This document shows positions 3,286-47,354 of a stretch of 51,972 nucleotides of DNA, piece by piece. Position 1 is the stretch's first letter. Each line of letters begins with the position of its first letter. The DNA comes from an archaeon (lineage in GTDB: Archaea; B1Sed10-29; WALL01; WAMD01): contig JAJRYR010000036.1 in NCBI GenBank assembly GCA_024275655.1, positions 1-51,972 on the forward strand, read 5' to 3'. A model generated the notes under the pieces. That model was not told the origin of the DNA. It worked only from the letters and a program-made list of their open reading frames with translations, and ran no database searches. A program made the position numbers and the translations under genes.

Positions 3286-3936
3286 TTAGAGCAATCCTTT
3301 ATGCACCTTTCTCAGCAGCTCCTCAAAGCTCTTACTCTTCTTGTAAGTTTTGTATACCCGAGGTAGCTTTGTCTTCAAGAAATCATAACGCCACTGCTGC
3401 CAAACAGAGGGAATAGTGTAATAATGCTGGAAAATCTTGGCAATAACTTCGGAAAGCTGCCAAATTTCATTCCAATTAGGCAACTTCTTTAATTCATAGT
3501 AATCTATACCATAAATTTCCTTCATGATATCCCAGTAGTGGATATGGAAAAGCTCCTCTGCAATAATTCCCCTATCTCTATTTCCGATTCGGATTCCACT
3601 AGGGTATAAATAACAACCCCTCGTGCCGTACCACACTTGACAAGAATATCTCTTCCTCTGCCATTCAAAGCCCGTAAACTCACTTACCTTCTCAAAAAAT
3701 TCACTTTCAACTGGCCTCCAGTAATCCCTAACAATAACACAAAATTCCTTGTTCAATCTTTCGAAAGTTTTCAAGTGCTTCCTAACGAAATCAGCATCCC
3801 ATCCTCTAATGTCATCGTAATCTGGTCCAAGGCGTTCCCTAAGTTCCCTGGCTGTCATGGGGCGAAAATAGAGCCTTGGCATAATCTTTATTAGCCAACT
3901 GGTATTATTAAAACTTTGTACGGCTATTTTAGTCAA
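3286..3936 (-). CDS. Hypothetical protein (W/Y-rich, no recognised domain)
   Basis: It is a long ORF with coding-like composition. Its promoter region is the 51-bp direct repeat, copy A. Confidence 0.35.
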   Translation of the reverse strand: MTKIAVQSFNNTSWLIKIMPRLYFRPMTARELRERLGPDYDDIRGWDADFVRKHLKTFERLNKEFCVIVRDYWRPVESEFFEKVSEFTGFEWQRKRYSCQVWYGTRGCYLYPSGIRIGNRDRGIIAEELFHIHYWDIMKEIYGIDYYELKKLPNWNEIWQLSEVIAKIFQHYYTIPSVWQQWRYDFLKTKLPRVYKTYKKSKSFEELLRKVHKGLL

Positions 3937-3943
3937 TTTACGA

Positions 3944-3994
3944 GGTCGGAAATCCGACTAAATTTACAGAAAAATGGTCGGAAAACCGACCAAA
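3944..3994. repeat. 51-bp perfect direct repeat, copy A (left flank of ATPase cassette 1); it contains two hairpins, gtcggaaatccgac and ggtcggaaaaccgacc
   Basis: The 51-mer ggtcggaaatccgactaaatttacagaaaaatggtcggaaaaccgaccaaa recurs exactly at 5218-5268. Confidence 0.9.
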
Positions 3995-4028
3995 ATCTAT
4001 AAAAAGAATAAAAAAGATAAACCAATAC

Positions 4029-5213
4029 ATGAACCTAGAGGAAATGAAAAAAACAGCAATAAGGCTAGGGGAAAATGTAAAAAATCTCAAACATAGATAT
4101 GTATTTTTCAGTCTAGTGAATAGACTGTTCAAAGAACCCAGAATAAAGTTGGTGAGAGGTTTTAGAGGATCTGGAAAAACCACCATTCTACTACAAATTT
4201 TTAACAAGTACAGGAAAAGAGCTATGTATCTATCAGCGGATAGCCCTATGATTGCTGGAGAGACATTGTACAATGTTTTAAAAGAAGTAATATCCAGTGG
4301 ATACGACCTTCTCTTGATAGATGAAATACACAGATATCCGCACTGGAGGAGAGACATAAAGGCGATATATGATGAGTTCCCGGAGGTAACTCTAGTTTGC
4401 TCAGGAAGTGCGCCCCTAGCATTTGTACCTGAAAGGAGGGAGGAGGTAATAGATGTTGAGCCAATGGGGTTCAGAGAGTTCTTAGAACTCAAGCATGGGT
4501 TTTCCCTCATTGTGAGGGATGAATGGTTAGATCCAGAAAAAAGCATAGAGATGGTGGCGAGATACTCTCCAAACTTAGAATCTGAATTTAGGGAGTACCT
4601 CCAAGTAGGGGGGTACCCAACTTGTCTAAAGTATGATCTAGACAGTGCAAAAAAAGCTTTATACGCCTCAATAAGAAAGTCCATATATGAAGACACTGCA
4701 AGCATTTTAAAAATGTCTCAAGAAAAAATCTACGCATTAAACAAGATACTAGTATTTCTAGCCACATCAGAACCTGGAGAATTGAGTATCACCACACTAG
4801 CATCTGCCACAGAGCTTTCAAAATCGGTCATATATGAACTTCTAGATGCACTAGAAAAGATGAAGATAATAAGAATTATACGCCCGTACGGACGAGGGGC
4901 AAAACTTATTAGAGGATCTCCAAAAATGTTATTTTACCATCCCAATCTCAGATATGCCATATGTAACGAATTGTCAATTGAACCAAGCATAGGTGCCATT
5001 AGGGAGGAACTCGCAGTTTTCGCCCTTGTCTCCAGGGGATACACGGTGAATACATTAAAGGGGTTGAAGCGTTCCCCTGATTACTATGTGGGTAAACCAC
5101 TAAATATGGTCCTTGAAATTGGGGGTAAGGGAAAGTCCAAAAAACAAATAAAGGGTTACAAAAGAGCAAAGGTTATCAAACCTGATCAATTACTTCTTCT
5201 ATCACTTTTCTAG
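4029..5213 (+). CDS. AAA_14/DUF4143-type P-loop ATPase (paralog 1)
   Basis: Walker A GFRGSGKTT and Walker B LLLIDEIH, with family-typical length and C-terminal region. It is a paralog of the 7865-9106 and 10564-11814 genes. Confidence 0.7.
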   Translation: MNLEEMKKTAIRLGENVKNLKHRYVFFSLVNRLFKEPRIKLVRGFRGSGKTTILLQIFNKYRKRAMYLSADSPMIAGETLYNVLKEVISSGYDLLLIDEIHRYPHWRRDIKAIYDEFPEVTLVCSGSAPLAFVPERREEVIDVEPMGFREFLELKHGFSLIVRDEWLDPEKSIEMVARYSPNLESEFREYLQVGGYPTCLKYDLDSAKKALYASIRKSIYEDTASILKMSQEKIYALNKILVFLATSEPGELSITTLASATELSKSVIYELLDALEKMKIIRIIRPYGRGAKLIRGSPKMLFYHPNLRYAICNELSIEPSIGAIREELAVFALVSRGYTVNTLKGLKRSPDYYVGKPLNMVLEIGGKGKSKKQIKGYKRAKVIKPDQLLLLSLF

Positions 5214-5217
5214 ATTT

Positions 5218-5268
5218 GGTCGGAAATCCGACTAAATTTACAGAAAAATGGTCGGAAAACCGACCAAA
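5218..5268. repeat. 51-bp perfect direct repeat, copy B (right flank of ATPase cassette 1)
   Basis: It is identical to 3944-3994. It starts 4 bp after the ATPase stop and ends at the stop of the 5269-5919 gene. Confidence 0.9.
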
Positions 5269-5919
5269 TTACTCTTTTTTGTGTGCTTTTTCTTGCTTTT
5301 CATTTGTTTCCTGTTTACCTAGTCTTAACGCAATTACTGCCAGCACTGCAATTATCACCAGCCCAGCTATTGCAATCACCAGCACGGAATTGTCCTCAGT
5401 TCCTAGTTCCTGCTCTGGCTGTTCAGATGGTTGAGCAACTGGTAGGGTTGCATTAACCGTTTCCTGAGTTTGCTCTTCTTGGGGCTGGATCTCCTCTGTA
5501 CCAAATATCTTTGCCTCTAGATCTGCCAGAAGTGCATCCATGTCAAATGGTGGGTCTGCATGGCTGGTTAGCCAGTAGTACAACCACTCGTGGTACTGGT
5601 CTACCTTCTGCATTAAATCGTAATCCCCATAGTTCTGCAAGCAGGCCTTTGTGTGAGCCCCACCATAGTACTCTAAAGCTATCACTCTTCCGTTCCAATC
5701 TCCCTCGTTAAAGTTCCACTCCTTCTCTGCCTCCCTTGCTCCCTTCAAAAGGTAATACGTACATTTGTCCCAGACCTTGAACTGTTCATAACACAGACCA
5801 GCGTCAATGTACTTTCCCTGGGTGGCTAGAGAATTGCATTGCTCCAAGCTCTCGTAGGTAACGCCTAAAACCAGGGTTGAAACCAGGATTATGCCCAGCA
5901 AAGCATATACGCATTTCAT
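5269..5919 (-). CDS. Secreted/membrane-anchored hypothetical protein (N-terminal signal peptide, acidic Q/E-rich linker, C-terminal TM anchor)
   Basis: N-terminal MKCVYALLGIILVSTLVLGV and C-terminal VLVIAIAGLVIIAVLAVIAL followed by basic residues. Confidence 0.4.
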   Translation of the reverse strand: MKCVYALLGIILVSTLVLGVTYESLEQCNSLATQGKYIDAGLCYEQFKVWDKCTYYLLKGAREAEKEWNFNEGDWNGRVIALEYYGGAHTKACLQNYGDYDLMQKVDQYHEWLYYWLTSHADPPFDMDALLADLEAKIFGTEEIQPQEEQTQETVNATLPVAQPSEQPEQELGTEDNSVLVIAIAGLVIIAVLAVIALRLGKQETNEKQEKAHKKE

Positions 5920-6989
5920 AGATTAATTTTTGGGTTAAATCTTTTAAAAAACTCTCTCACAGCGTACACTGGATTCTCCGTGAAAATCAGGTCCAGGTCT
6001 GGTGGGAAGCACCTCTTGTAATTCTTCCACTTGTACCTTTCATCCATAAACACAACCACACCGACATCATCTTCATTCCTTATCAGCCTTCCCGCCGCTT
6101 GTATTGCCCTGGCCATTGCCGGGTACAGGTATCCGTAGGTCCAACCAGCCCCAAACTTGTACTCATAGTAATCTATTAGTGCTTTGGTTTCCAGGTCATA
6201 CTCGTTCAGAGGTATTCCGACCACAATCACTCCAACTAGTTCCCTTCCAGGATAGTCCACACCCTCTGCCAGGCTCCCTCCAGCTACTGCTAAGAGCAGG
6301 GCTCCTTCCTCCTTCATCCTCTTGAAAAGGGACAAGAGCTCGTTGGTTTCCTCTGGCTTAGAGGACTCCCTCTGAACCAGCACCTGCCTAGTGGTAGCGA
6401 TGTAAGATCTAATTCCGTGAAGAACATCATAGCTGGGAAAGAAAACCGCAACGTTTCCAGGGATTGCCTCCAGGATCTCTGAGATCTTTTCCCCAATCCT
6501 CTTAAATTCTTCCTCGTTCCTCTTTGAGTATCTGGTGGTGACTCCAGTGTAAACAACATTCAAGCGGTTTTTCTTGGGAAACGGAGACCTGTAAATCTTT
6601 GTTACGGTCCGCTCCGGATCGAAGCCCAGCAAGTCCCGGTACATCTCTAGAGGAACTAGTGTTCCGGACATGGCAATTACTGAGTGGGCAGAATCCATGA
6701 GATCCTGGGTGGCCAGGCTGGGATCCAAGTTCTTGTAAGAGATTGTTATCCCGGTGCCGGTCTTCCACTTCTTTGCTATTCTAATGTAGCTGGGAATTTC
6801 CTCTGACCACAGAGAGAAGAACTTTGCCAATTTCAAGCAGGCGGACTTGTTTCTGTTGGTGGTTTCCAGGTAAACTAGACCCTGGTCGTGGAACTCTCCA
6901 ATCAAATCCTCGTCCCAGCTCGGGAGGTCCGAACTGGAAACCAAAGTCTCTTTTTGGTTTGCCAGCTTCTTTGCCAGGACTTCTTCCAT
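5916..6989 (-). CDS. XPD/Rad3-family helicase, C-terminal part (Helicase_C_2); frameshifted continuation of 7007-7810
   Basis: SGTL motif and the HD2 region (VAVFFPSY...AAGRLIRNEDDVGVVVF). The open frame extends upstream to 7082 as HYSLTGEKAEKEV... and overlaps the N-terminal ORF in another frame. Confidence 0.65.
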   Translation of the reverse strand: MEEVLAKKLANQKETLVSSSDLPSWDEDLIGEFHDQGLVYLETTNRNKSACLKLAKFFSLWSEEIPSYIRIAKKWKTGTGITISYKNLDPSLATQDLMDSAHSVIAMSGTLVPLEMYRDLLGFDPERTVTKIYRSPFPKKNRLNVVYTGVTTRYSKRNEEEFKRIGEKISEILEAIPGNVAVFFPSYDVLHGIRSYIATTRQVLVQRESSKPEETNELLSLFKRMKEEGALLLAVAGGSLAEGVDYPGRELVGVIVVGIPLNEYDLETKALIDYYEYKFGAGWTYGYLYPAMARAIQAAGRLIRNEDDVGVVVFMDERYKWKNYKRCFPPDLDLIFTENPVYAVREFFKRFNPKINL

Positions 6990-7006
6990 AGCCTTGGAAA
7001 GTTTTC

Positions 7007-7810
7007 TCAGATGCTTTTCCAGGTGCTTCGCACCCAGGAGCTTAACTTCCTTCTCTGCCTTTTCACCAGTAAGTGAGTAATGCTAACACTGAGGTGGTTT
7101 CTAACCCTCTCTGGAACGTTGTGTGCCTCATCTATGATAATGACTGAATCTCTCAATGTCTTTTTTGTCTTTATCAGAAAGCTCTCTCTTATTCCAGAGG
7201 AGAGCAAATGGAAGTAGTCTGCTATTATCACCTGGGAGTCTCTAGCTATCTGTGTCATTATCTCATAGGCACAGAGTGGTCGTCTCTCCCCTTCGTATGT
7301 AAACGCTTTGCACATATCCACTAGCTTGTGGGCTGGTGTGACCATTCCATAATTCGCTAGGAGCTTTTCTAAATGAAGTCTTGCTGTCTTCCTCTGGCTG
7401 GGGGTGAATCCTCTCGCCCAAGCGTAGTACGGGCAGGATTCGTTTTTCCTTCTCTTGTTGCAAACCTCGTAGAACTCGTCCACGTCCATGCCTTCCAGCG
7501 AGGGATCAACACATGCATACCTTCTCCCGATTATGTCTGCTGCCCTGAACTTGACCTTGTGCCTTTTTGCGATTCTCTCCAGCTCGTTCACCGCAATTTG
7601 ATGCTGGGATATCTTGGGAGTCAAGAAAAAGACTGTCCCATCGTTTTCCAGGGCCCAGGTGAGGGAAGGTCCCAAGACGGCTGCGGTCTTTCCTATGCCA
7701 GTTGGCGCATGGGCAAGCAAATGCTTACCGCTAGACACGGCCTCCCAAACGTCCATCAAGAACTCTTCCTGGTACTTCCTAGGCCTAGAGTGAGAGAAAA
7801 GGATCTTCAC
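7007..7810 (-). CDS. XPD/Rad3-family helicase, N-terminal part (DEAD_2, Walker A, DEAH box)
   Basis: Walker A APTGIGKT and DEAH box IIIDEAHNV. The ORF ends about 25 codons after the DEAH box. Confidence 0.65.
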   Translation of the reverse strand: MKILFSHSRPRKYQEEFLMDVWEAVSSGKHLLAHAPTGIGKTAAVLGPSLTWALENDGTVFFLTPKISQHQIAVNELERIAKRHKVKFRAADIIGRRYACVDPSLEGMDVDEFYEVCNKRRKNESCPYYAWARGFTPSQRKTARLHLEKLLANYGMVTPAHKLVDMCKAFTYEGERRPLCAYEIMTQIARDSQVIIADYFHLLSSGIRESFLIKTKKTLRDSVIIIDEAHNVPERVRNHLSVSITHLLVKRQRRKLSSWVRSTWKSI

Positions 7811-7864
7811 ATTCTAGTTTTGGAAGAGGAACTATTTAGGGATTGAGGTCGCTGGGCAATTCAG

Positions 7865-9106
7865 TTATTTATATACCTTCGCATTTTTTAGAAGAAGGTT
7901 TATAAATGACTCAATGTCTTCTAGGGTTACTAAATGCTTATCCTTAACCCGTAGCTCATTAGAGGCAGCGTTCAACCCCTTGATCTCCCTAGCCAAGTGG
8001 GGGCCACGGCCAAGGGTTACCTGAACTGTGAAGGTTGGCTTGCCTTCCCTAGCTACAACAAAATCGCATTCGGCATCGTTTGTCCAGTAATAGATCTCAC
8101 TTCCCATCTTAAACAGTTCTATTCCAACCAGGAGTTCTAGAGCTCTGCCCCTATCTGGAGTTGGCCCCCAGCCCACTGCCCACTTGAAGGCTAGGTCAAT
8201 CGGATAAAACTTCCTAGGAAACGCCATCTGGGTTTTCAACGAATGTGCATAACGTCTAACCTCAAACATAACCATAGAATCCTTGAAAGCGTTCACGTAC
8301 TTTTCTGCGGTGTGGTAAGCCATCTTGAACAACTTGGATATCTTGTTCACGGAAATCGGGTTTCCCGCATTTCTCAGCAAATACCTGGCTATTTCATTTG
8401 CCTTGTCTAGATCTAAGTCATGACCAGCGGACACGTCCCTGGCAACTATGCTTTCATAGTACTCAACAGCGAGTTTTCTCTTCGCTGCTTCTGTTTTTTC
8501 CATGAATATCTCGGGGTAGCTACCATAACTCATGAGCTCTTCCATTAAACCTAGCAATGCTTGTCTGTCTCGAGGGTCCACAGGATTTATTCCCCTAATT
8601 CTAGCCGCCTCAAAGAGACTAAAGGGGTAAACTCTAAAGGTGATCGTCCTTCCAGCTAGTCTCCTAGAAAACTGGCTACCCAGCATAGCCAGCGTTGAGC
8701 CAGAAACAACCAGATTTACGGGGTCTCTCTTGTCGTATATTGCCCTAAGGTGCATATCCCACTTTGGCACATTCTGTATCTCATCCAGGAGGATAACTGC
8801 TCCTTTACCTCCTACTTTTTTCGCTTCCTCGTAGACTTTTTTGAAACCTGCTTCTTGTATTTCCGGATCCTCAAAATTAATGTAAACCGCCCTTCTCGGA
8901 TTACTCTGTATCAATTCACTTGCAACCTGGTACATTACTGTTGTTTTCCCTGCTCTCCTAGGACCTATTATCACCTTTATCTTTCTTTTCCCCATCCAAT
9001 CCAGAATTTTCCTGGTAACATCTCTAGGCTCTCCCAGTAGATCGCTAGGAACCTCTCCAACTGTCCACCACGGATTCCATGTCTCTAGAACATCCCTAAG
9101 CGCCAT
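7865..9106 (-). CDS. AAA_14/DUF4143-type P-loop ATPase (paralog 2)
   Basis: Walker A GPRRAGKTT and Walker B ILLDEIQ. The last 11 codons and the stop lie in the 34-bp repeat. Confidence 0.7.
   Translation of the reverse strand: MALRDVLETWNPWWTVGEVPSDLLGEPRDVTRKILDWMGKRKIKVIIGPRRAGKTTVMYQVASELIQSNPRRAVYINFEDPEIQEAGFKKVYEEAKKVGGKGAVILLDEIQNVPKWDMHLRAIYDKRDPVNLVVSGSTLAMLGSQFSRRLAGRTITFRVYPFSLFEAARIRGINPVDPRDRQALLGLMEELMSYGSYPEIFMEKTEAAKRKLAVEYYESIVARDVSAGHDLDLDKANEIARYLLRNAGNPISVNKISKLFKMAYHTAEKYVNAFKDSMVMFEVRRYAHSLKTQMAFPRKFYPIDLAFKWAVGWGPTPDRGRALELLVGIELFKMGSEIYYWTNDAECDFVVAREGKPTFTVQVTLGRGPHLAREIKGLNAASNELRVKDKHLVTLEDIESFINLLLKNAKVYK
7867..7900. repeat. 34-bp perfect direct repeat, copy A (atttatataccttcgcattttttagaagaaggtt), at the 3' end of ATPase paralog 2
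   Basis: It is identical to 9127-9160. Confidence 0.9.
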
Positions 9107-9126
9107 GTTCTATTATTAGTTTTGTC

Positions 9127-9160
9127 ATTTATATACCTTCGCATTTTTTAGAAGAAGGTT
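9127..9160. repeat. 34-bp perfect direct repeat, copy B, between the ATPase paralog 2 start and the stop of the Nre-like gene
   Basis: It is identical to 7867-7900. Read on the minus strand it again encodes ...NLLLKNAKVYK*. Confidence 0.9.
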
Positions 9161-10365
9161 CACATCCACCGTCTCAATGCCTCTCTGGATCTAATCCTAG
9201 CCAACAACTCACTACTCTTTCTCCACTCTCTCTTCACTTCAAGTCTTCTGTCTATCTCGTTCAAAGCTGCCTCCAAAGAATCAAATTTAACCGGCTTTGA
9301 GGCCATGGCCCTCCTAACGTTCTCCCTTATCTGCCAAACACCAACAGGAGCCCAGTACTCTGGGGTTATTTCCCTCACCACCAGGGCTTTTGCTTGCCTC
9401 TTTATTTTGGCTAGATACTCTAGAATTGCCAGCCTGGCTGCGTAGTATGCACCAGTAACATTGTCTGCATAACTGGTCCTTCCCTCGTAGGGCTCGTAGT
9501 CCGCTAGGATTACTGGTCGTTCTCCGCCAGTGACCCATATACAGCCAGGGTCATAGATTTCCACGTTGTCAAATTCCCACTTACCTGGGATCAGTAAGAC
9601 CTCAAACCTGTTGCCCAAATAGTAGCTCTCAAAGAGCAAGTAATCGCCGATCTCCTGAAAGTCCTTTACCCTAGCGATTAATGCCTTTCCCAGGGTATCA
9701 TCTGTCGCAGTGATGCTCCACCTAGTAGGAACTAGTTTTTTATCAATTCCCAAAGTTCCTATGGAAAGCAAGTTCGTGAGTTTGCTAACTGGTACGCCGT
9801 GCTGGTACAAGTAGAACAGAGCTTCTCCCGCCTTCATTTCGTCGTTCACAACTTCATCCACCTTTCTGGGTATCTTCGGGTTGTCCACAAGTTCCAGGCC
9901 CAAAATCTCTCCACTGGGCCCATGGGGAGCAGTGATGTCGTTCCAGGATACTTCGGTCTTAGGCTCTTTCTTGAACGCCAGCTCCATTTCCACGCTATCC
10001 CTTGCCATCACGGCCAATTGCATTTCATACAGGTGCCTGGGTGGATCCTTTGCCCAGTCTATGCGCATTTCCTCTTTTCCCCTTATTAGTTGAGACCTCA
10101 TCTGCAGTATCTCCTCTAGGGACTTTCCATACCAGGCCTCGGGAAGATCTAAAAAACTAGCATCTTCTGTTCTTGCAACCAATGGACCAACAAAAACTTT
10201 TGGATACCCTATCCTCCCAACAAGAACGCTTGGGGGGGAATTGGCATCTATGATCCTGGAGATGCTTTTCAAACTAGCCAAAACCCTAGCTCTCTCTAGC
10301 AGAGGGCATTTAGGCCTCCCACACAAAAGCTTGGTTCCTTTGCACTTAACACAAAGTTCTGGCAC
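9160..10365 (-). CDS. Nre-family (NreA-like) predicted DNA-repair protein with an N-terminal C4 zinc ribbon
   Basis: N-terminus MPELCVKCKGTKLLCGRPKCPLL and ~400 aa length. The assignment is from memory of the Nre_N/Nre_C architecture. Confidence 0.45.
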   Translation of the reverse strand: MPELCVKCKGTKLLCGRPKCPLLERARVLASLKSISRIIDANSPPSVLVGRIGYPKVFVGPLVARTEDASFLDLPEAWYGKSLEEILQMRSQLIRGKEEMRIDWAKDPPRHLYEMQLAVMARDSVEMELAFKKEPKTEVSWNDITAPHGPSGEILGLELVDNPKIPRKVDEVVNDEMKAGEALFYLYQHGVPVSKLTNLLSIGTLGIDKKLVPTRWSITATDDTLGKALIARVKDFQEIGDYLLFESYYLGNRFEVLLIPGKWEFDNVEIYDPGCIWVTGGERPVILADYEPYEGRTSYADNVTGAYYAARLAILEYLAKIKRQAKALVVREITPEYWAPVGVWQIRENVRRAMASKPVKFDSLEAALNEIDRRLEVKREWRKSSELLARIRSREALRRWM

Positions 10366-10388: not shown

Positions 10389-10446
10389 TTAAATACCTAG
10401 TCTTGCCAAAAATTATTGATGAAAATTGTTAAAACTAGGCACGGCC
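10389..10446. repeat. 58-bp perfect direct repeat, copy A; it carries a truncated copy of the start of the AbrB-like gene (MKIVKTRHG then divergence and a stop)
   Basis: It is identical to 11879-11936. Confidence 0.9.
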
Positions 10447-10518
10447 CAGTTCTTCTGTTGCCTAGGAAAACGGTCAGATATGTCTAAATAAATCCTGGAG
10501 GAAGGTTTTCTGTAAACA

Positions 10519-10546
10519 GAAAGAAATTCAAGGAATTCTTTCTGCT
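10519..10546. repeat. 28-bp imperfect palindrome (gaaagaaattcaaggaattctttctgct), copy A, 17 bp upstream of ATPase paralog 3
   Basis: It is identical to 11825-11852. Internal inverted symmetry runs around the central aa. Confidence 0.85.
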
Positions 10547-10563
10547 AGGAGAAAGAATTAAAT

Positions 10564-11814
10564 ATGGGAAAAACACTAAAATATATCATGGATTTGAAGA
10601 GTACACTAAAGGAGATAATCCTGGAATTTCACGAGAGAGGAATCCCAGAATACATCCACAGAGATATCCCCGTACCTAAACTGAAGAGGATAAATAAAGC
10701 TATAAGTATAGTTGGTCCTAGGAGATCCGGAAAGACATATCTGATGTATCAAATAATGAAGGAAAGAATAAGCGATATTGAAAAGATAGTTTATGTTAAC
10801 CTAGAGGATGACAGGCTCATAGACATAAATGCTAAAAACCTGCGCCAGATACTTGAAGCCTATACAGAGTTGTACCCTGAAAAGACACCTATTGTATTTC
10901 TAGATGAGGTTCAGGTTGTTCTAGGATGGGAAAAATTCGTTAGAAGGCTCGTAGATTCTGGGATAAGGGTGTATATTTCCGGGTCAAGTTCAAAGTTGAT
11001 TGGCAAGGAACTTGCAACAACCCTACGTGGAAGGGCAATAACGGTTAATGTTTACCCGTTGTCATTCAAAGAGTTTCTTAGGTTCAAAGGTGTGAAATTG
11101 GATAAAAACTGGGAGTACACGTCCCAAAGAGTGAAGGTAAAGAGAATGTTTGATCAGTTCATGAAAACTAGCGGGTTCCCAGAGATTGCACTTGAAGGAG
11201 AGATGTCACTGATAGATGACTACTTCAAAACAATATTCTTTAGGGATGTAGTAGAGAGGTATAGAATAAAGAACCTAGATCTCATGGAATTGTTGATGAA
11301 ATACTTGGTAAAAAACTATGCCAGGGAATTTAGCATAAATAGATTCCACAACTTTGCTAGGAGTCTGGGCTACAAATCCAGCACGTCTGTTGTTAGAGAG
11401 TATCTTAGGATGCTCCAAGAATCATATTTTGTACACCTGGCTCCAGTCTGGAGAAAGAGCAAAAAGGAATTTGTTTATTCCAAGAAAAGCTACGTTATCG
11501 ATCACGGCTTTGTTAACTACCTACTCCCAGAAGTGGATCCGGGAAGATTACTAGAAAATATAGTATTTGAGGAACTGGTAAAAAAAGGGGAAACAGTTAG
11601 GTACTACAAAAATGACGGGGAATGCGACTTCATAACAGGTAATCTGGCAATACAGGTGACTTACCGACTAGGAGAGGAAAATAGACAAAGAGAGATAAGG
11701 GGTCTCATGTTGGCAAAGAGCCACACGAGAAGAAGAGGGATAATATTAACGTATGATCAGGAAGAGAGCAATCCAGAAACTGTTCCAGCATACAAGTTTA
11801 TGCTTAGATCATAG
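10564..11814 (+). CDS. AAA_14/DUF4143-type P-loop ATPase (paralog 3)
   Basis: Walker A GPRRSGKTY and Walker B VFLDEVQ. It is closest to paralog 2. Confidence 0.7.
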   Translation: MGKTLKYIMDLKSTLKEIILEFHERGIPEYIHRDIPVPKLKRINKAISIVGPRRSGKTYLMYQIMKERISDIEKIVYVNLEDDRLIDINAKNLRQILEAYTELYPEKTPIVFLDEVQVVLGWEKFVRRLVDSGIRVYISGSSSKLIGKELATTLRGRAITVNVYPLSFKEFLRFKGVKLDKNWEYTSQRVKVKRMFDQFMKTSGFPEIALEGEMSLIDDYFKTIFFRDVVERYRIKNLDLMELLMKYLVKNYAREFSINRFHNFARSLGYKSSTSVVREYLRMLQESYFVHLAPVWRKSKKEFVYSKKSYVIDHGFVNYLLPEVDPGRLLENIVFEELVKKGETVRYYKNDGECDFITGNLAIQVTYRLGEENRQREIRGLMLAKSHTRRRGIILTYDQEESNPETVPAYKFMLRS

Positions 11815-11824
11815 TTTTCATATG

Positions 11825-11852
11825 GAAAGAAATTCAAGGAATTCTTTCTGCT
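11825..11852. repeat. 28-bp palindrome, copy B, 10 bp downstream of ATPase paralog 3
   Basis: It is identical to 10519-10546. Confidence 0.85.
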
Positions 11853-11878: not shown

Positions 11879-11936
11879 TTAAATACCTAGTCTTGCCAAA
11901 AATTATTGATGAAAATTGTTAAAACTAGGCACGGCC
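11879..11936. repeat. 58-bp perfect direct repeat, copy B; it contains the promoter and the first 10 codons of the 11906-12667 gene
   Basis: It is identical to 10389-10446. Confidence 0.9.
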
Positions 11937-12667
11937 TAGCTGTGGTTCTTCCCAGAGAGATCGTGGAACTGCTAGGGTTAAAGGAAGGGCAGGAGCTGGA
12001 ATTCAAGCACATTTCCGGCAAGGTTTTTGCTCTATTCCCAAAGGAAGCTGGCAAGAAACCATCAGAAAAGAAGGGGAAGGGGCTTACCGAAGAAGAGCTC
12101 AAGGTTCTCAAGAAGTTGAACAAGATTAGGTTCACGGAAAGGACTCCAAAGAAAGTTAAAGACGTGTTAACAAAAGAGGAGTGGGAAGTTCTGAAAGAAC
12201 TACTGAAAAAGAGAGTCATACTGAAGATGGTTCACGGAAAGTACGAAAAGAGCGGGGGAGTCTACTCCATAAGCAGGGAATATTACGGAATGTTAAAAGG
12301 CGTTGAAAAGAAAAAGGAAAAGGACGAAGTGGATGCCCTGGTGGACGTTCTAAAGAGAGACGGCTTCTTCTCAACAAAGGACCAAAAGATAGCAGAAGAA
12401 CTGGCAGAGAGACTAAATACTGAACTGGAACTTGGAGAGGTAGCGGCTGTGAAAAGCTTTGACAAGACATTCTACTTCGTTACAAACCAAACATTAGCAT
12501 CTGTGGGAGACCAGATCAGAAAAGTTCTGAAATCCGGTCCATTGACAGCTGAGGAGATAGCCACCAAACTAAAAAAGGATCCCACGCTAGTGAAGGCCGT
12601 GCTGGAGATACTTAGAGAGTCTGGGGAAGTGATAGAAAAAAGAAAAAATGTGTATTCCCTTGCGTGA
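11906..12667 (+). CDS. DNA-binding protein with an N-terminal AbrB/SpoVT (MazE-like) swapped-hairpin domain and a C-terminal winged helix
   Basis: KIVKTRHGLAVVLPREIVELLGLKEGQELEF resembles the AbrB/MazE fold. C-terminal LTAEEIATKLKKDPTLVKAVLEILRESGEVIEKR is wH-like. Confidence 0.45.
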   Translation: MMKIVKTRHGLAVVLPREIVELLGLKEGQELEFKHISGKVFALFPKEAGKKPSEKKGKGLTEEELKVLKKLNKIRFTERTPKKVKDVLTKEEWEVLKELLKKRVILKMVHGKYEKSGGVYSISREYYGMLKGVEKKKEKDEVDALVDVLKRDGFFSTKDQKIAEELAERLNTELELGEVAAVKSFDKTFYFVTNQTLASVGDQIRKVLKSGPLTAEEIATKLKKDPTLVKAVLEILRESGEVIEKRKNVYSLA

Positions 12668-23614: not shown

Positions 23615-25315
23615 TCACCCCAATCTAATTTTGCCCTTCTTCCTTTTTAATACTACAAAGTACGCAACCACCGCAATAATAACAATGAACAAGAATCCAA
23701 CAAATAACAGCAACCCCACGGCAACTAGCAACCAGAACGTTGGGATATTGGATATGTCCAGGGAGAATGATGGCCCGCTACCTTTAATCCCCAGGTAGTA
23801 AGTGCCATTCTTGTTAAAAACTTTCAGATAGTTTGTCCCAGGAACTAGTGTTATGCTTCCAGATTTTGGAACGTAGTCCGGTTCGCATGCGTTCTCATTG
23901 CAGATTTCCACTTTAACGGGATATCCCTTTGCATTCAGATAAGCTTGTATGTACTCTGCTTTCAGAGTTACTTCAGAATCAGAGGTATACTCGATTATCT
24001 CAGAACTGCCATTCTCTACCTTTTTGGAAGCAACTTCATCCAGCAGTCCCGCACCAGGACCAATATCCTTGATTAAGTGGCAGTTGACACACATGTAACC
24101 TGGTTCTACAGATGCGTTATCATCGCACTCTTCTGACCCTGCAACTATTCCATCACCACATATGGGTTGCATGGACTTACAATCGCTAGAACACTTGAAC
24201 CCCAAAGGAACGTTGTTGCCATCACACAGCTCTCCTTCTACAACCATCCCATCGCCACATATAGGGACTAAGGATTTACAATCACTGGAACATTCATACC
24301 CTGGTTTCACACTTGAACCGTCGCAGACCTCACCATCAACTACTTTCCCATCGCCACACACCGGTTCTAGCTTGCAGTCCTCGGTGCACTTGAATCCATA
24401 TGGTACACCATCATTCCCATCACATTCCTCATTTTGCCCTAGCATATTTGGGGTCTGCTTGATGCCATCCCCACAGTATGCTGGAGCTGGTAGGTACTTG
24501 CCATCTTCAACATCGTACACGTGATCCAACGGAAGCGAGTAGGATACTGTCTCATTTGCATCATATATCTTGATGTCAGATATTTTCCATAAGTATTCCC
24601 TGTTGTTCTCTATGTCCGCACCCATTATAACCAGGGTCAGATTGTCCCTCATACACTCTCCCGCATCTATTTTCATAACAACTGTGTGCCACTTCTCCTG
24701 CTCTATTGGCTCGGAATCGTACTTGTTCACAGCCCCGGCGTCGCCAAGTGCCTTCCCGTCAAACAGCCAACCCTTGTACGTTGTTTCAGACATGCAGTAA
24801 ATGTACTTGTCCAATGGGCCTATGTAGTTACATTCCACGTGAATGTGGCACATCTCACCATTCAACGGGAACCAGGAAAATGAATCTGGATTAAACCCTG
24901 GGTTCTCCAAGCTGGTGCCATTGTTTCCAAAGTACAAGAAGGAGAAAATGTTCGGCCCATCGTTTGCGGGTTCCTCTCCTGCTGCATTCCCTGCATTCCC
25001 CAAATCAAGATCAATGTTTGGAGCATAGACCCAAACCTTGAAGGATATGTAAAACTCGTCCGCAGGTGGGTGTGGGATAACCTTCCATATCCTCCAAATG
25101 CCCGTGAACTCGTCAGAGGTTTTCACTTCTAGGTATAAGCCTTGGTCAGGATCATATTTAAGCTGCCTATCAACATAGCCATCTCCATTGGCGAAGTGGA
25201 CTGTCTTGAATTGCCAGTCAGTACCCAAGTACTGGGAGTAGTTCAACCCATAAGCCAACACACCTAAGAACAACAGCGAGAGTATAGCATATCCCCTGAC
25301 ACTCATTTTTATCAC
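23615..25315 (-). CDS. Surface protein with a signal peptide, 4-5 tandem myxococcus-type cysteine-rich repeats (DUF4215-like CGDGxxxxxExCDxG) and a C-terminal TM anchor
   Basis: Repeats CGDGKVVDGEVCDGSS..., CGDGMVVEGELCDGNN... and CGDGIVAGSEECDDNA... lie at ~24070-24500. C-terminal hydrophobic helix plus KRKKGKIRLG. Confidence 0.6.
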   Translation of the reverse strand: MIKMSVRGYAILSLLFLGVLAYGLNYSQYLGTDWQFKTVHFANGDGYVDRQLKYDPDQGLYLEVKTSDEFTGIWRIWKVIPHPPADEFYISFKVWVYAPNIDLDLGNAGNAAGEEPANDGPNIFSFLYFGNNGTSLENPGFNPDSFSWFPLNGEMCHIHVECNYIGPLDKYIYCMSETTYKGWLFDGKALGDAGAVNKYDSEPIEQEKWHTVVMKIDAGECMRDNLTLVIMGADIENNREYLWKISDIKIYDANETVSYSLPLDHVYDVEDGKYLPAPAYCGDGIKQTPNMLGQNEECDGNDGVPYGFKCTEDCKLEPVCGDGKVVDGEVCDGSSVKPGYECSSDCKSLVPICGDGMVVEGELCDGNNVPLGFKCSSDCKSMQPICGDGIVAGSEECDDNASVEPGYMCVNCHLIKDIGPGAGLLDEVASKKVENGSSEIIEYTSDSEVTLKAEYIQAYLNAKGYPVKVEICNENACEPDYVPKSGSITLVPGTNYLKVFNKNGTYYLGIKGSGPSFSLDISNIPTFWLLVAVGLLLFVGFLFIVIIAVVAYFVVLKRKKGKIRLG

Positions 25316-46830: not shown

Positions 46831-46866
46831 ATTTATTTTTGTCATAACTGGTTAAAAAGGTTTTAT
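46831..46866. promoter_or_regulatory. tRNA-Cys promoter (BRE/TATA ctttttaa ~27 nt upstream of the tRNA 5' end on the minus strand); it is copy 1 of a ~36-bp direct repeat
   Basis: atttatttttgtcataactggttaaaaaggtttta lies immediately 5' of tRNA-Cys. It is nearly identical to 47317-47354. Confidence 0.6.
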
Positions 46867-46869
46867 AGC

Positions 46870-47139
46870 TCACTTATAAACATTTTTTCTCTTGCCTATT
46901 TTTACAATGATGATTATTTCTTTACTAGGGTATACTCGGAACAAGATTCTGTACTTCCCAACCCTCAAGCGATAGGTGTGTTGCCAACCTTCCATTTTGA
47001 TTACATCCAGATTAATAAAAGGAAATTCCCGTAATTGATTGATCTTCTCCAAAATTCGTGATCTAGTTCTCGGAGGAATACTCTTCAACTCAGAATGTGC
47101 TCGAGGTAAAAAGCGAATCTCAAATACCATATAGCTCAA
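46870..47139 (-). CDS. relE: RelE/ParE-family type II toxin (TTG start as called; internal ATG at 47130)
   Basis: ...WQHTYRLRVGKYRILFRVYPSKEIIIIVKIGKRKNVY is the RelE/ParE C-terminal signature. Confidence 0.75.
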   Translation of the reverse strand: MSYMVFEIRFLPRAHSELKSIPPRTRSRILEKINQLREFPFINLDVIKMEGWQHTYRLRVGKYRILFRVYPSKEIIIIVKIGKRKNVYK

Positions 47140-47140
47140 C

Positions 47141-47315
47141 TCATGAGCTCATCAAGAGAAACTAGCTTCTTTAGTTTCCCCATTCTAACTAGCTCATCTG
47201 CCTCCATCAACCTTTCGACTTCATCAAGTGTCAAGAATCTATCCTCAACCAGCTCAAATAGTTTATCCAATTTCATCTCAATTTGAGTTAACTTTTTTTC
47301 TACATCCACTACCAT
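47141..47315 (-). CDS. Putative cognate antitoxin (58 aa; not in the ORF track)
   Basis: Minus-strand MVVDVEKKLTQIEMKLDKLFELVEDRFLTLDEVERLMEADELVRMGKLKKLVSLDELMS*. Its TGA stop abuts the toxin start in the classic antitoxin-toxin order. Confidence 0.45.
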
Positions 47316-47316
47316 G

Positions 47317-47354
47317 ATTTTATTTTTGTCATAACTGGTTAAAAAGGTTTTTAT
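47317..47354. promoter_or_regulatory. Copy 2 of the tRNA-Cys promoter repeat, 1-2 bp upstream of the antitoxin ATG (predicting a leaderless TA transcript)
   Basis: attttatttttgtcataactggttaaaaaggttttta differs from copy 1 by only two 1-nt indels. Confidence 0.6.

Follow-up and report, generated by a model that had tools for sequence, protein, structure and literature searches.

Palindromic 51-nt direct repeats around an archaeal ATPase-nuclease gene as the probable ends of a mobile single-gene module

The stretch of DNA analysed here, contig JAJRYR010000036.1 of the archaeal assembly GCA_024275655.1 (51,972 nucleotides, hereafter "the window"), carries the gene of an AAA_14/DUF4143-type ATPase, ATPase 1, between two direct copies of a 51-nt sequence, GGTCGGAAATCCGACTAAATTTACAGAAAAATGGTCGGAAAACCGACCAAA. 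These 51-mers are probably the terminal direct repeats of a mobile single-gene module, and not target DNA. Such a module would consist of repeat, promoter, ATPase/nuclease gene and repeat, each repeat comprising two palindromic sites with half-sites phased at 32 nt, or three helical turns. Cooperative sites for dimeric or oligomeric DNA-binding proteins typically have such a layout, and the binder may be the winged-helix part of the ATPase itself or a host regulator. The upstream copy, ending at the B recognition element (BRE) and TATA box of a leaderless ATPase gene, would be the native operator, and the downstream copy a duplicate of this operator placed at the stop codon. Gene conversion would keep the two copies alike, whereas recombination between direct repeats 1.27 kb apart would pop the gene out with one copy left, which fits the single-copy sites of close relatives; the whole repeat-to-repeat unit would also appear at new genomic places.

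According to the original prediction the 51-mer has exactly two copies, one 34 nt upstream of the ATG of ATPase 1 and one 4 nt past its stop codon, and both are found there on the + strand (3944-3994 and 5218-5268), with 0 mismatches between them and with the two palindromes and the neighbouring open reading frames (ORFs) that it had described. Copy 1 lies upstream of ORF 3286-3936 (-), and copy 2 abuts the stop codon of ORF 5269-5919 (-). No third copy occurs in the window at up to 3 mismatches (0 matches expected, 100 shuffles), and the pattern GTCGG-N-CCGAC is confined there to the two 51-mers. The module contains one gene, the ATPase, without transposase or integrase. Two further ATPase genes of the window, ATPase 2 (7865-9106, -) and ATPase 3 (10564-11814, +), are bracketed by other repeats, as had also been claimed: by 37-nt repeats in the former, and by 28-nt repeats plus an outer pair of ~60 nt in the latter. 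The three proteins are 25-30% identical to one another where alignable (ATPase 1 against ATPase 3 gave no alignment) and are therefore not recent copies of one another. AAA_14 scores above its Pfam cut-off in all three (E = 2e-21 in ATPase 1), and DUF4143, a family classed as PD-(D/E)XK (PMC3424549), does so in ATPases 2 and 3, reaching 23.4 bits in ATPase 1, under the cut-off of 28.1. All of them match the PADLOC PDC-S01 profiles (E = 6e-30, 1e-83 and 7e-96 for ATPases 1, 2 and 3) and have the same domain make-up as described for that class (PMC12988326); on this basis they are candidate defence genes. Sequence search of solved structures returned marginal P-loop matches only. Gene 3286-3936 has no Pfam or PADLOC match and no homologue in any fetched locus. 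An Rfam scan yielded two tRNAs only, and therefore no known RNA in the repeats; IMG/VR scans with all three ATPases gave no match, and thus no evidence for a viral carrier. Named homologues of the ATPase and of the window gene Nre belong to Micrarchaeota, Diapherotrites and other DPANN archaea.

Repeats homologous to the 51-mer accompany the ATPase 1 subfamily at many unrelated loci. A total of 94 subfamily proteins were aligned and metagenomes of the Joint Genome Institute (JGI) were scanned, and the 29 loci surveyed (designated below by L numbers, as are other fetched sequences) are those subfamily loci with enough flank plus three from NCBI/ENA. A direct repeat of 30-62 nt, far above shuffles, is present in 20/29 (41-79% amino acid (aa) identity), ending 18-62 nt before the ATG, with its second copy starting between -30 and +29 nt of the stop; no comparable repeat was found in 31 loci of distant AAA_14 ATPases (24-30% identity). 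The repeat-bearing loci belong to other DPANN (Micrarchaeota-like) contigs and stand in unrelated contexts, flanking genes matching in just two pairs (L018/L019 and L019/L047) among the 18 compared. The repeats themselves are homologous across loci: those of the window and L027 are 88% identical over 49 nt, the proteins being just 46% identical, and in L005/L006 an ATPase 45% identical to ATPase 1, located between tRNA synthetase and glucose-6-phosphate isomerase genes, has on either side a perfect direct repeat of 58 nt with a core, CCGAC-N18-GTCGG, that shows homology to the 51-mer. The search for further copies that had been proposed found, within 613 kb of fetched DNA, repeats solely beside subfamily ATPase genes, the window holding just its two; no dispersed solitary copies were seen of the kind looked for as miniature inverted-repeat transposable elements (MITEs) or repetitive extragenic palindromes (REPs). 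The ATPase of L025 is flanked by a different, GC-rich, imperfect 73-nt direct repeat (3723-3795 and 5174-5246), which ends 184 nt upstream of the start and is not the usual double palindrome.

Each copy is made of a distal and a proximal site built from one half-site, which depending on the clade is GTCG/CGAC, TTTCC(G)/(C)GGAAA or TTGCGG/CCGCAA, and the half-site starts are 32 nt apart in nearly every locus and in both copies. The end of the proximal site is the start of a TATA-like box, situated in most loci 28-31 nt, and over the whole range 19-42 nt, upstream of the ATG; this is the geometry expected of a leaderless archaeal gene, and the box of the window, whose layout recurs in 13 homologous loci, would be the promoter of a leaderless ATPase 1 mRNA. 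The A-rich strand is the ATPase sense strand in both copies. The 32-nt phasing (GTCG, GTTTCC or TTGCGG half-sites) and the TATA position are kept even in repeat-negative loci, and because these members retain the two-site element upstream (e.g., L040 and L041, with 32-nt spacing), the upstream copy is read as a control element belonging to the gene itself, and its downstream counterpart as a duplicate. Regularly spaced palindromic boxes are a feature of archaeal autoregulated promoters (Lrp/FFRP-type operators), which the present sites resemble in their A/T-rich palindrome centres, their distance of about three helical turns and their position directly upstream of BRE/TATA; unlike those operators, the module repeats the composite site at the 3' end of the gene. 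Mismatches between copies fall mostly in spacers and loops, rather than in arms. One clade has a distal site that is no palindrome, and the innermost arm positions are often mismatched, so the palindromes are read as likely protein-binding sites and not as an obligatory hairpin. The original prediction had put them forward as recombinase or regulator sites, and they do look like sites to which a protein would bind. In single-stranded form, the 51-mer folds into one long hairpin (-12.7 kcal/mol, z = -5.6), as does the 58-mer (-12.9 kcal/mol, z about -5). A conserved nucleic-acid hairpin is not claimed: arm covariation is weak, the GTCG/CGAC core is near invariant and the innermost pair is often mismatched.

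The extent of the transferred unit can be read from L020 and L047, two loci of the same metagenome with unrelated flanks of 0.5-3.9 kb. They are 87.7% identical over 1313 nt, and the homology begins at base 1 of the upstream repeat and stops 4 nt beyond the downstream one; the repeats are therefore inside the transferred unit and not made from the target. In the pair L015/L017 the modules share 95% identity, whereas the left flanks are not related. At the L020, L047 and window junctions, no short target duplication recurs consistently.

The nearest relatives carry corresponding sites without the ATPases. L004 (GCA_027000005.1), with 91-94% nt identity to the window, has the order XPD, gene-5269 homologue, 101-nt spacer and metallo-beta-lactamase-fold (MBL) gene, without ATPase 1 and gene 3286. 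Directly past the stop codon of the gene-5269 homologue lies a single 51-mer-like element (2289-2345), whose outer arms, TTTGGTCG ... CCGACCAAA, are in place as in window 5218-5268; its interior reads as the reverse complement of that in the two copies of the window, and the second of its palindromes is degenerate. An empty site with gene 5269, one 51-mer and gene 3286 in succession had been proposed as a check: the gene-5269 homologue followed by one element and no ATPase is there, but the succession including gene 3286 was not found. Given the inverted interior and the missing gene 3286, simple repeat-by-repeat deletion in the window arrangement would not produce that of L004. In L011 (GCA_053993375.1; 87-95% identity over three aligned blocks) Nre is followed directly by XPD and the gene-11906 homologue stands beside Nre, without ATPase 2 and ATPase 3. 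This locus has exactly one 37-mer and one ~60-nt outer repeat, the latter having on its left the flank of copy 1 in the window and on its right that of copy 2. All three window ATPases are therefore absent from the nearest known relatives, and the cassette behaviour originally proposed for the ATPase is supported by L004 and by the single-repeat sites of L011. In more distant relatives (L005-L008) the spacer between gene 5269 and the adjoining MBL gene is free of such an element, and L009 has no solitary element at the site matching the L005 cassette. A contig search with XPD as the query recovered distant relatives only (at most 78% aa identity), too diverged for an empty-site test, and the different genes that distant relatives have at the three ATPase positions only show that these positions are variable. 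Gaps between core genes (MBL, XPD, Nre, AbrB-like gene, TtuA) differ by lineage in L001 (5493-12150), L009 (2944-3927) and L012 (4141-5565, 7706-8530 and 11516-12714), being filled with molybdopterin oxidoreductase, radical SAM, serpin, AbiEii and several genes without assignment; these intergenic positions are general hot spots of gene turnover.

The pair had been explained in the original prediction as one host spacer duplicated around the inserted cassette, in the manner of a very long target duplication or of an attL/attR pair. According to the former version, a promoter-bearing ATPase fragment would have entered an existing host spacer, with duplication of 51 nt of target. The single-copy sites of close relatives for all three ATPases agree with such an event, which is documented in bacteria (PMC2853133), and so do two other repeats of the window: the outer ATPase 3 repeat, host-derived because it holds the TATA box and first ten codons of a conserved AbrB/MazE-like gene, and the 33-nt repeat of a putative toxin-antitoxin insert, which holds the tRNA-Cys promoter. 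For the 51-mer this origin is nevertheless unlikely, since repeats and ATPases alike are homologous from one unrelated context to the next and the repeats belong to the transferred unit, the L020/L047 homology ending at their outer edges; moreover, the L005-L008 spacer is devoid of such an element, the L004 copy is inverted inside, and repeat-negative members keep the upstream element as their own control region. Nor can the repeats well be an attL/attR pair made from the target, given the homologous repeats around homologous ATPases elsewhere and a module that holds no recombinase; the tRNA genes of the window lie elsewhere.

Pairs of this kind can also persist. The orthologous loci L018 and L019, colinear over 2.8 kb at 75% nt identity and with ATPases 81% identical, both have the repeat pair, and their spacer variants are common to both copies in a genome and different between genomes; the same holds for L015 and L017. 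L012 has an ATPase 3 ortholog (81% aa identity, same site beside Nre) with a homologous 49-nt hairpin repeat pair (8572-8620 and 9878-9926), one loop of which is approximately the reverse complement of the other (7/9 positions); segments between inverted arms appear to flip, both in this loop and in the L004 element. From these three comparisons it follows that repeat pairs can last long and are homogenised by recombination between copies. Persistence over ~25% nt divergence (L018/L019, window/L012), concerted evolution and the conservation of phasing and arms in both copies would also suit a non-mobile, regulatory arrangement, with the same operator at both ends of the gene for looping, roadblock or insulation of a toxic nuclease gene, and with deletions only behind its absences. 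We regard this as doubtful in view of a cassette that recurs almost unchanged between flanks that are unrelated, the homology stopping where the repeats stop, of the highly diverse contexts, whereas repeat-less L033, L040 and L041 have flanking genes in common pairwise, and of the three cassettes within 8 kb that are all missing in 91-95% identical relatives.

Assembly requires separate consideration, as a perfect repeat longer than the assembler's k gives one and the same de Bruijn graph for an integrated gene and for a circle plus a solo site, and the integration of ATPase 1 hence rests on the assembler. The contig might in principle combine one chromosomal 51-mer with a separate circle of 1,274 bp made of the ATPase and one 51-mer, or with a collapsed repeat threaded into it. 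Two Logan contigs begin mid-repeat: L095 (1275 nt), which also ends mid-repeat, and L098 (1329 nt), which runs to the final bases of the downstream copy; a third, L093, had no informative ends. Many family homologue matches are on short contigs of 1257-1463 nt, approximately the repeat-to-repeat length, which is the signature of a repeat-induced graph loop. However, ten family loci have repeats with 1-5 mismatches, every variant joined to its own flank, and therefore the integrated form is real in the family; the same layout recurs in independent NCBI, JGI and ENA assemblies, and the 37-nt and 60-nt pairs of the window differ by one base between copies. An artefact is thus very unlikely.

Several points weigh against a mobile module with its own terminal repeats. 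The solitary L004 copy is inverted inside and gene 3286 is missing there too, clean unit boundaries come from a single pair of loci (L020/L047), and no circular or tandem intermediate was seen, the ~1.27-1.33 kb Logan contigs being graph loops only. STAND winged-helix domains are often not sequence-specific DNA binders. The repeats of ATPase 2, of outer ATPase 3 and of the toxin-antitoxin insert may be host-derived target duplications. Finally, the module model provides neither a mechanism of insertion nor a reason for the downstream copy. The PD-(D/E)XK nuclease may have a role in making or moving the unit, and a more ambitious proposal would make repeat-ATPase-repeat an autonomous mobile element: the ATPase-nuclease would recognise the palindromes of its own repeats, nick their outer edges, and excise, linearise and re-insert its gene, with nicks ~50 nt apart and fill-in regenerating two copies from one, like T7 concatemer junctions. 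This proposal is speculative and we hold it to be improbable, while the mobile module as such is still the reading that we favour.

The features of the window are collected in Table 1. Local direct repeats of at least 14 nt number 8 in the window against 0.5 expected, and besides those of the ATPases they include pairs of 33 nt around a small tRNA-Cys-promoter insert and of 22 nt around a helix-turn-helix (HTH) gene.

Table 1. Repeats, putative promoter elements and ATPase 1 gene of the window
Feature	Position	Strand	Remarks
Upstream 51-nt repeat (putative terminal repeat)	3944..3994	+	Exact repeat; 32-nt phasing and position relative to ATG kept across the subfamily
Distal palindrome of upstream repeat	3945-3958		GTCGGA-aa-TCCGAC
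Proximal palindrome of upstream repeat	3976-3991		GGTCGG-aaaa-CCGACC; GTCG motifs 32 nt apart
TATA-like box TATAAAAAG	3998..4006	+	Begins 31 nt before ATG, just outside the repeat
ATPase 1, 394 aa	4029..5213	+	STAND/ORC-like NTPase, winged helix, C-terminal PD-(D/E)XK-type (DUF4143) domain; PADLOC PDC-S01 class
Downstream 51-nt repeat	5218..5268	+	4 nt past ATPase 1 stop, touching the stop of ORF 5269-5919 (-)
ATPase 2 downstream 37-nt repeat	7864..7900	-	Hairpin ACCTTC-N13-GAAGGT plus TATATAAAT
ATPase 2 upstream 37-nt repeat	9124..9160	-	Begins at the final base of the Nre stop codon
Outer ATPase 3 repeat, copy 1	10389..10449	+	Duplicates putative promoter and first 10 codons of host gene 11906-12667
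ATPase 3 upstream 28-nt hairpin repeat	10519..10546	+	Followed by TATA TTAAATA (10557-10563)
ATPase 3 downstream 28-nt hairpin repeat	11825..11852	+	10 nt past the stop of ATPase 3 (10564/10588-11814, +)
Outer ATPase 3 repeat, copy 2	11879..11939	+	Presumed functional promoter and 5' end of AbrB/MazE-like gene 11906-12667
33-nt repeat with putative tRNA-Cys promoter	46832..46864	-	Perfect pair with 47319-47351

The downstream 37-nt repeat codes for the final 11 codons and the stop of ATPase 2, and the TATA of the upstream repeat is ~25 nt before the ATPase 2 ATG (9106). The 37-mer was not found downstream of Nre in distant relatives. A separate TATA lies 25 nt before the start of XPD, and the one in the solitary L011 37-mer is therefore an orphan; this 37-mer looks more like a footprint than a host promoter. 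The probable true start of ATPase 3 is the ATG at 10588. Homologues of gene 11906-12667 are present in L001, L011 and L012, and the 69 nt that follow outer copy 1 (10450-10518) read as a decayed continuation of the 5' coding region of that gene, yielding a 22-codon pseudo-ORF, MKIVKTRHGPVLLLPRKTVRYV*; the identity changes sharply from 98% to roughly 50%. The 33-nt pair encloses a 454-nt insert (46865-47318) with two small minus-strand ORFs that, in translations read by eye, look like an antitoxin and a RelE/ParE-like toxin. This insert is bounded exactly by a gene end on one side and by the tRNA-Cys promoter on the other, and the TATA-like box of its repeat lies 24 nt before the ATG of the first ORF and 27 nt before the tRNA. 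The HTH_24/AsnC-type regulator gene 528-1529 is bracketed by a GC-rich hairpin repeat (AGGGGGCCCTTAGCGGGCCCCA plus a C-rich tail) at 395-438 and 1517-1632; the stop of this ORF sits in the hairpin loop of the second copy, which is broken by a very GC-rich 72-nt segment (1539-1610). Within ORF 23615-25315 (-), a 52-nt motif occurs three times at a 99-nt period (24120-24369), probably as a repeated 33-residue protein unit. The XPD helicase gene (5916-7810, -) is split into ORFs 5916-6989 and 7007-7810 by a frameshift near 7040-7045, a 1-nt deletion (GGTGAA-AAGG) with respect to L004 and L011; XPD is one ORF in L011 and L001, and in L004, which lacks the deletion, it is truncated by the contig end. 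The split reflects either pseudogene formation or an error in sequencing.

Insertion with long target duplication is the closest described phenomenon. Its occurrence in restriction-modification genes was reportedly described by Nobusato et al. in 2000. It was also described for such genes by Furuta, Abe and Kobayashi in 2010, in a survey that found no archaeal case (PMC2853133). As in those inserts, a nuclease-encoding, defence-type gene without transposase or integrase is flanked here by direct repeats of more than 30 bp, and the repeats would permit amplification or loss. Furuta et al. (2010) looked for flanking direct repeats longer than 30 bp without a mobility gene, for a relative with one copy, and for a repeat that is host target DNA. 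Regarding the first, repeats of 51 and 51 nt surround one ATPase. As to the second, L011 provides a clean one-copy relative for the 37-nt and ~60-nt repeats, and for the 51-mer there is the L004 element, with its inverted interior, its degenerate second palindrome and no gene 3286 beside it. On the third, the 51-mer departs from their description, as its unrelated contexts and the L020/L047 boundaries show. In a long target duplication the repeat is a unique host target. The 51-mer family, in contrast, accompanies its gene and is conserved from one unrelated locus to another; its architecture is constant, with two sites phased at 32 nt and an adjoining TATA, and it forms part of what is transferred. 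The repeats of ATPase 2 (37 nt), outer ATPase 3 (~60 nt) and the toxin-antitoxin insert (33 nt) do fit the description, and long target duplication may account for the outer ATPase 3 repeat and for the one at the tRNA-Cys insert, and perhaps for the 37-mer as well.

Other systems share the form of the module. Long terminal repeats (LTRs), including solo LTRs, and the terminal repeats of T7-like phages are comparable in form only, two identical direct repeats bounding a unit and containing or abutting its promoter; as with solo LTRs, recombination would leave a solitary copy, and inter-copy identity ranges here from 100% to about 85% among loci. Unlike LTR elements and T7-like phages, the module is 1.3 kb long, has one gene, and is without reverse transcriptase, packaging machinery or evidence of an RNA or concatemer intermediate. 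Integron cassettes (attC) and the pdif modules of Acinetobacter plasmids are likewise exchangeable single genes or small sets bounded by palindromic sites, but the present repeats have neither attC core motifs nor 11-6-11 sites of XerC/D type, they form no array, and they are specific to a gene family, not recognised by one shared recombinase. That the module is a known mobile element, be it an integron cassette, two MITEs forming a composite, or a hairpin element like IS200/IS605 that is mobilised in trans, would accord with the hairpin-forming capacity of the repeats noted above, with the 6-10 bp terminal inverted ends of the unit (TTTGGTCGG...CCGACCAAA) and with the integrons reported for DPANN archaea (PMC9668308). 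It is, however, extremely unlikely. The R''/R' core motifs of attC (RYYYAAC/GTTRRRY) are found neither in nor beside the 51-mer; the repeat stands at both ends of isolated single genes scattered among core genes; there are no extra copies in the 613 kb; and the distal site is non-palindromic in one clade. Likewise, the short inverted ends (GGTCGG/CCGACC) that an insertion sequence or DNA transposon would have are present, but with no transposase and no consistent target duplication.

ATPase-nucleases of the PDC-S01 type are among the commonest candidate defence genes in prokaryotes and especially abundant in archaea, and most such candidates await validation (PMC12988326). The PDC-S01 literature found mentions no flanking-repeat architecture, and the repeat pair is specific here to the ATPase 1 subfamily. 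The subfamily thus gains a precise and conserved cis-architecture, in which both ends of the gene carry a palindromic element of two sites that keeps a fixed register with promoter and stop, and direct comparative evidence of repeat-gene-repeat as the unit that is moved and lost. For experiments it now offers a DNA ligand and ends that are both defined, and excision products that can be predicted. In metagenome graphs such perfect repeats cause loops, so that genes are often fragmented, mis-threaded or misplaced in bins. Broadly, mobile nuclease-gene cassettes with long direct repeats are of a known kind, and what is new is their element-borne, operator-like repeats and their presence in archaea; the mobility of nuclease genes by long direct repeats is thereby extended to archaea, in a variant whose repeat belongs to the element and not to the target. 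If self-mobilisation were true, part of the abundant PDC-S01 class would be selfish elements rather than, or besides, immune genes.

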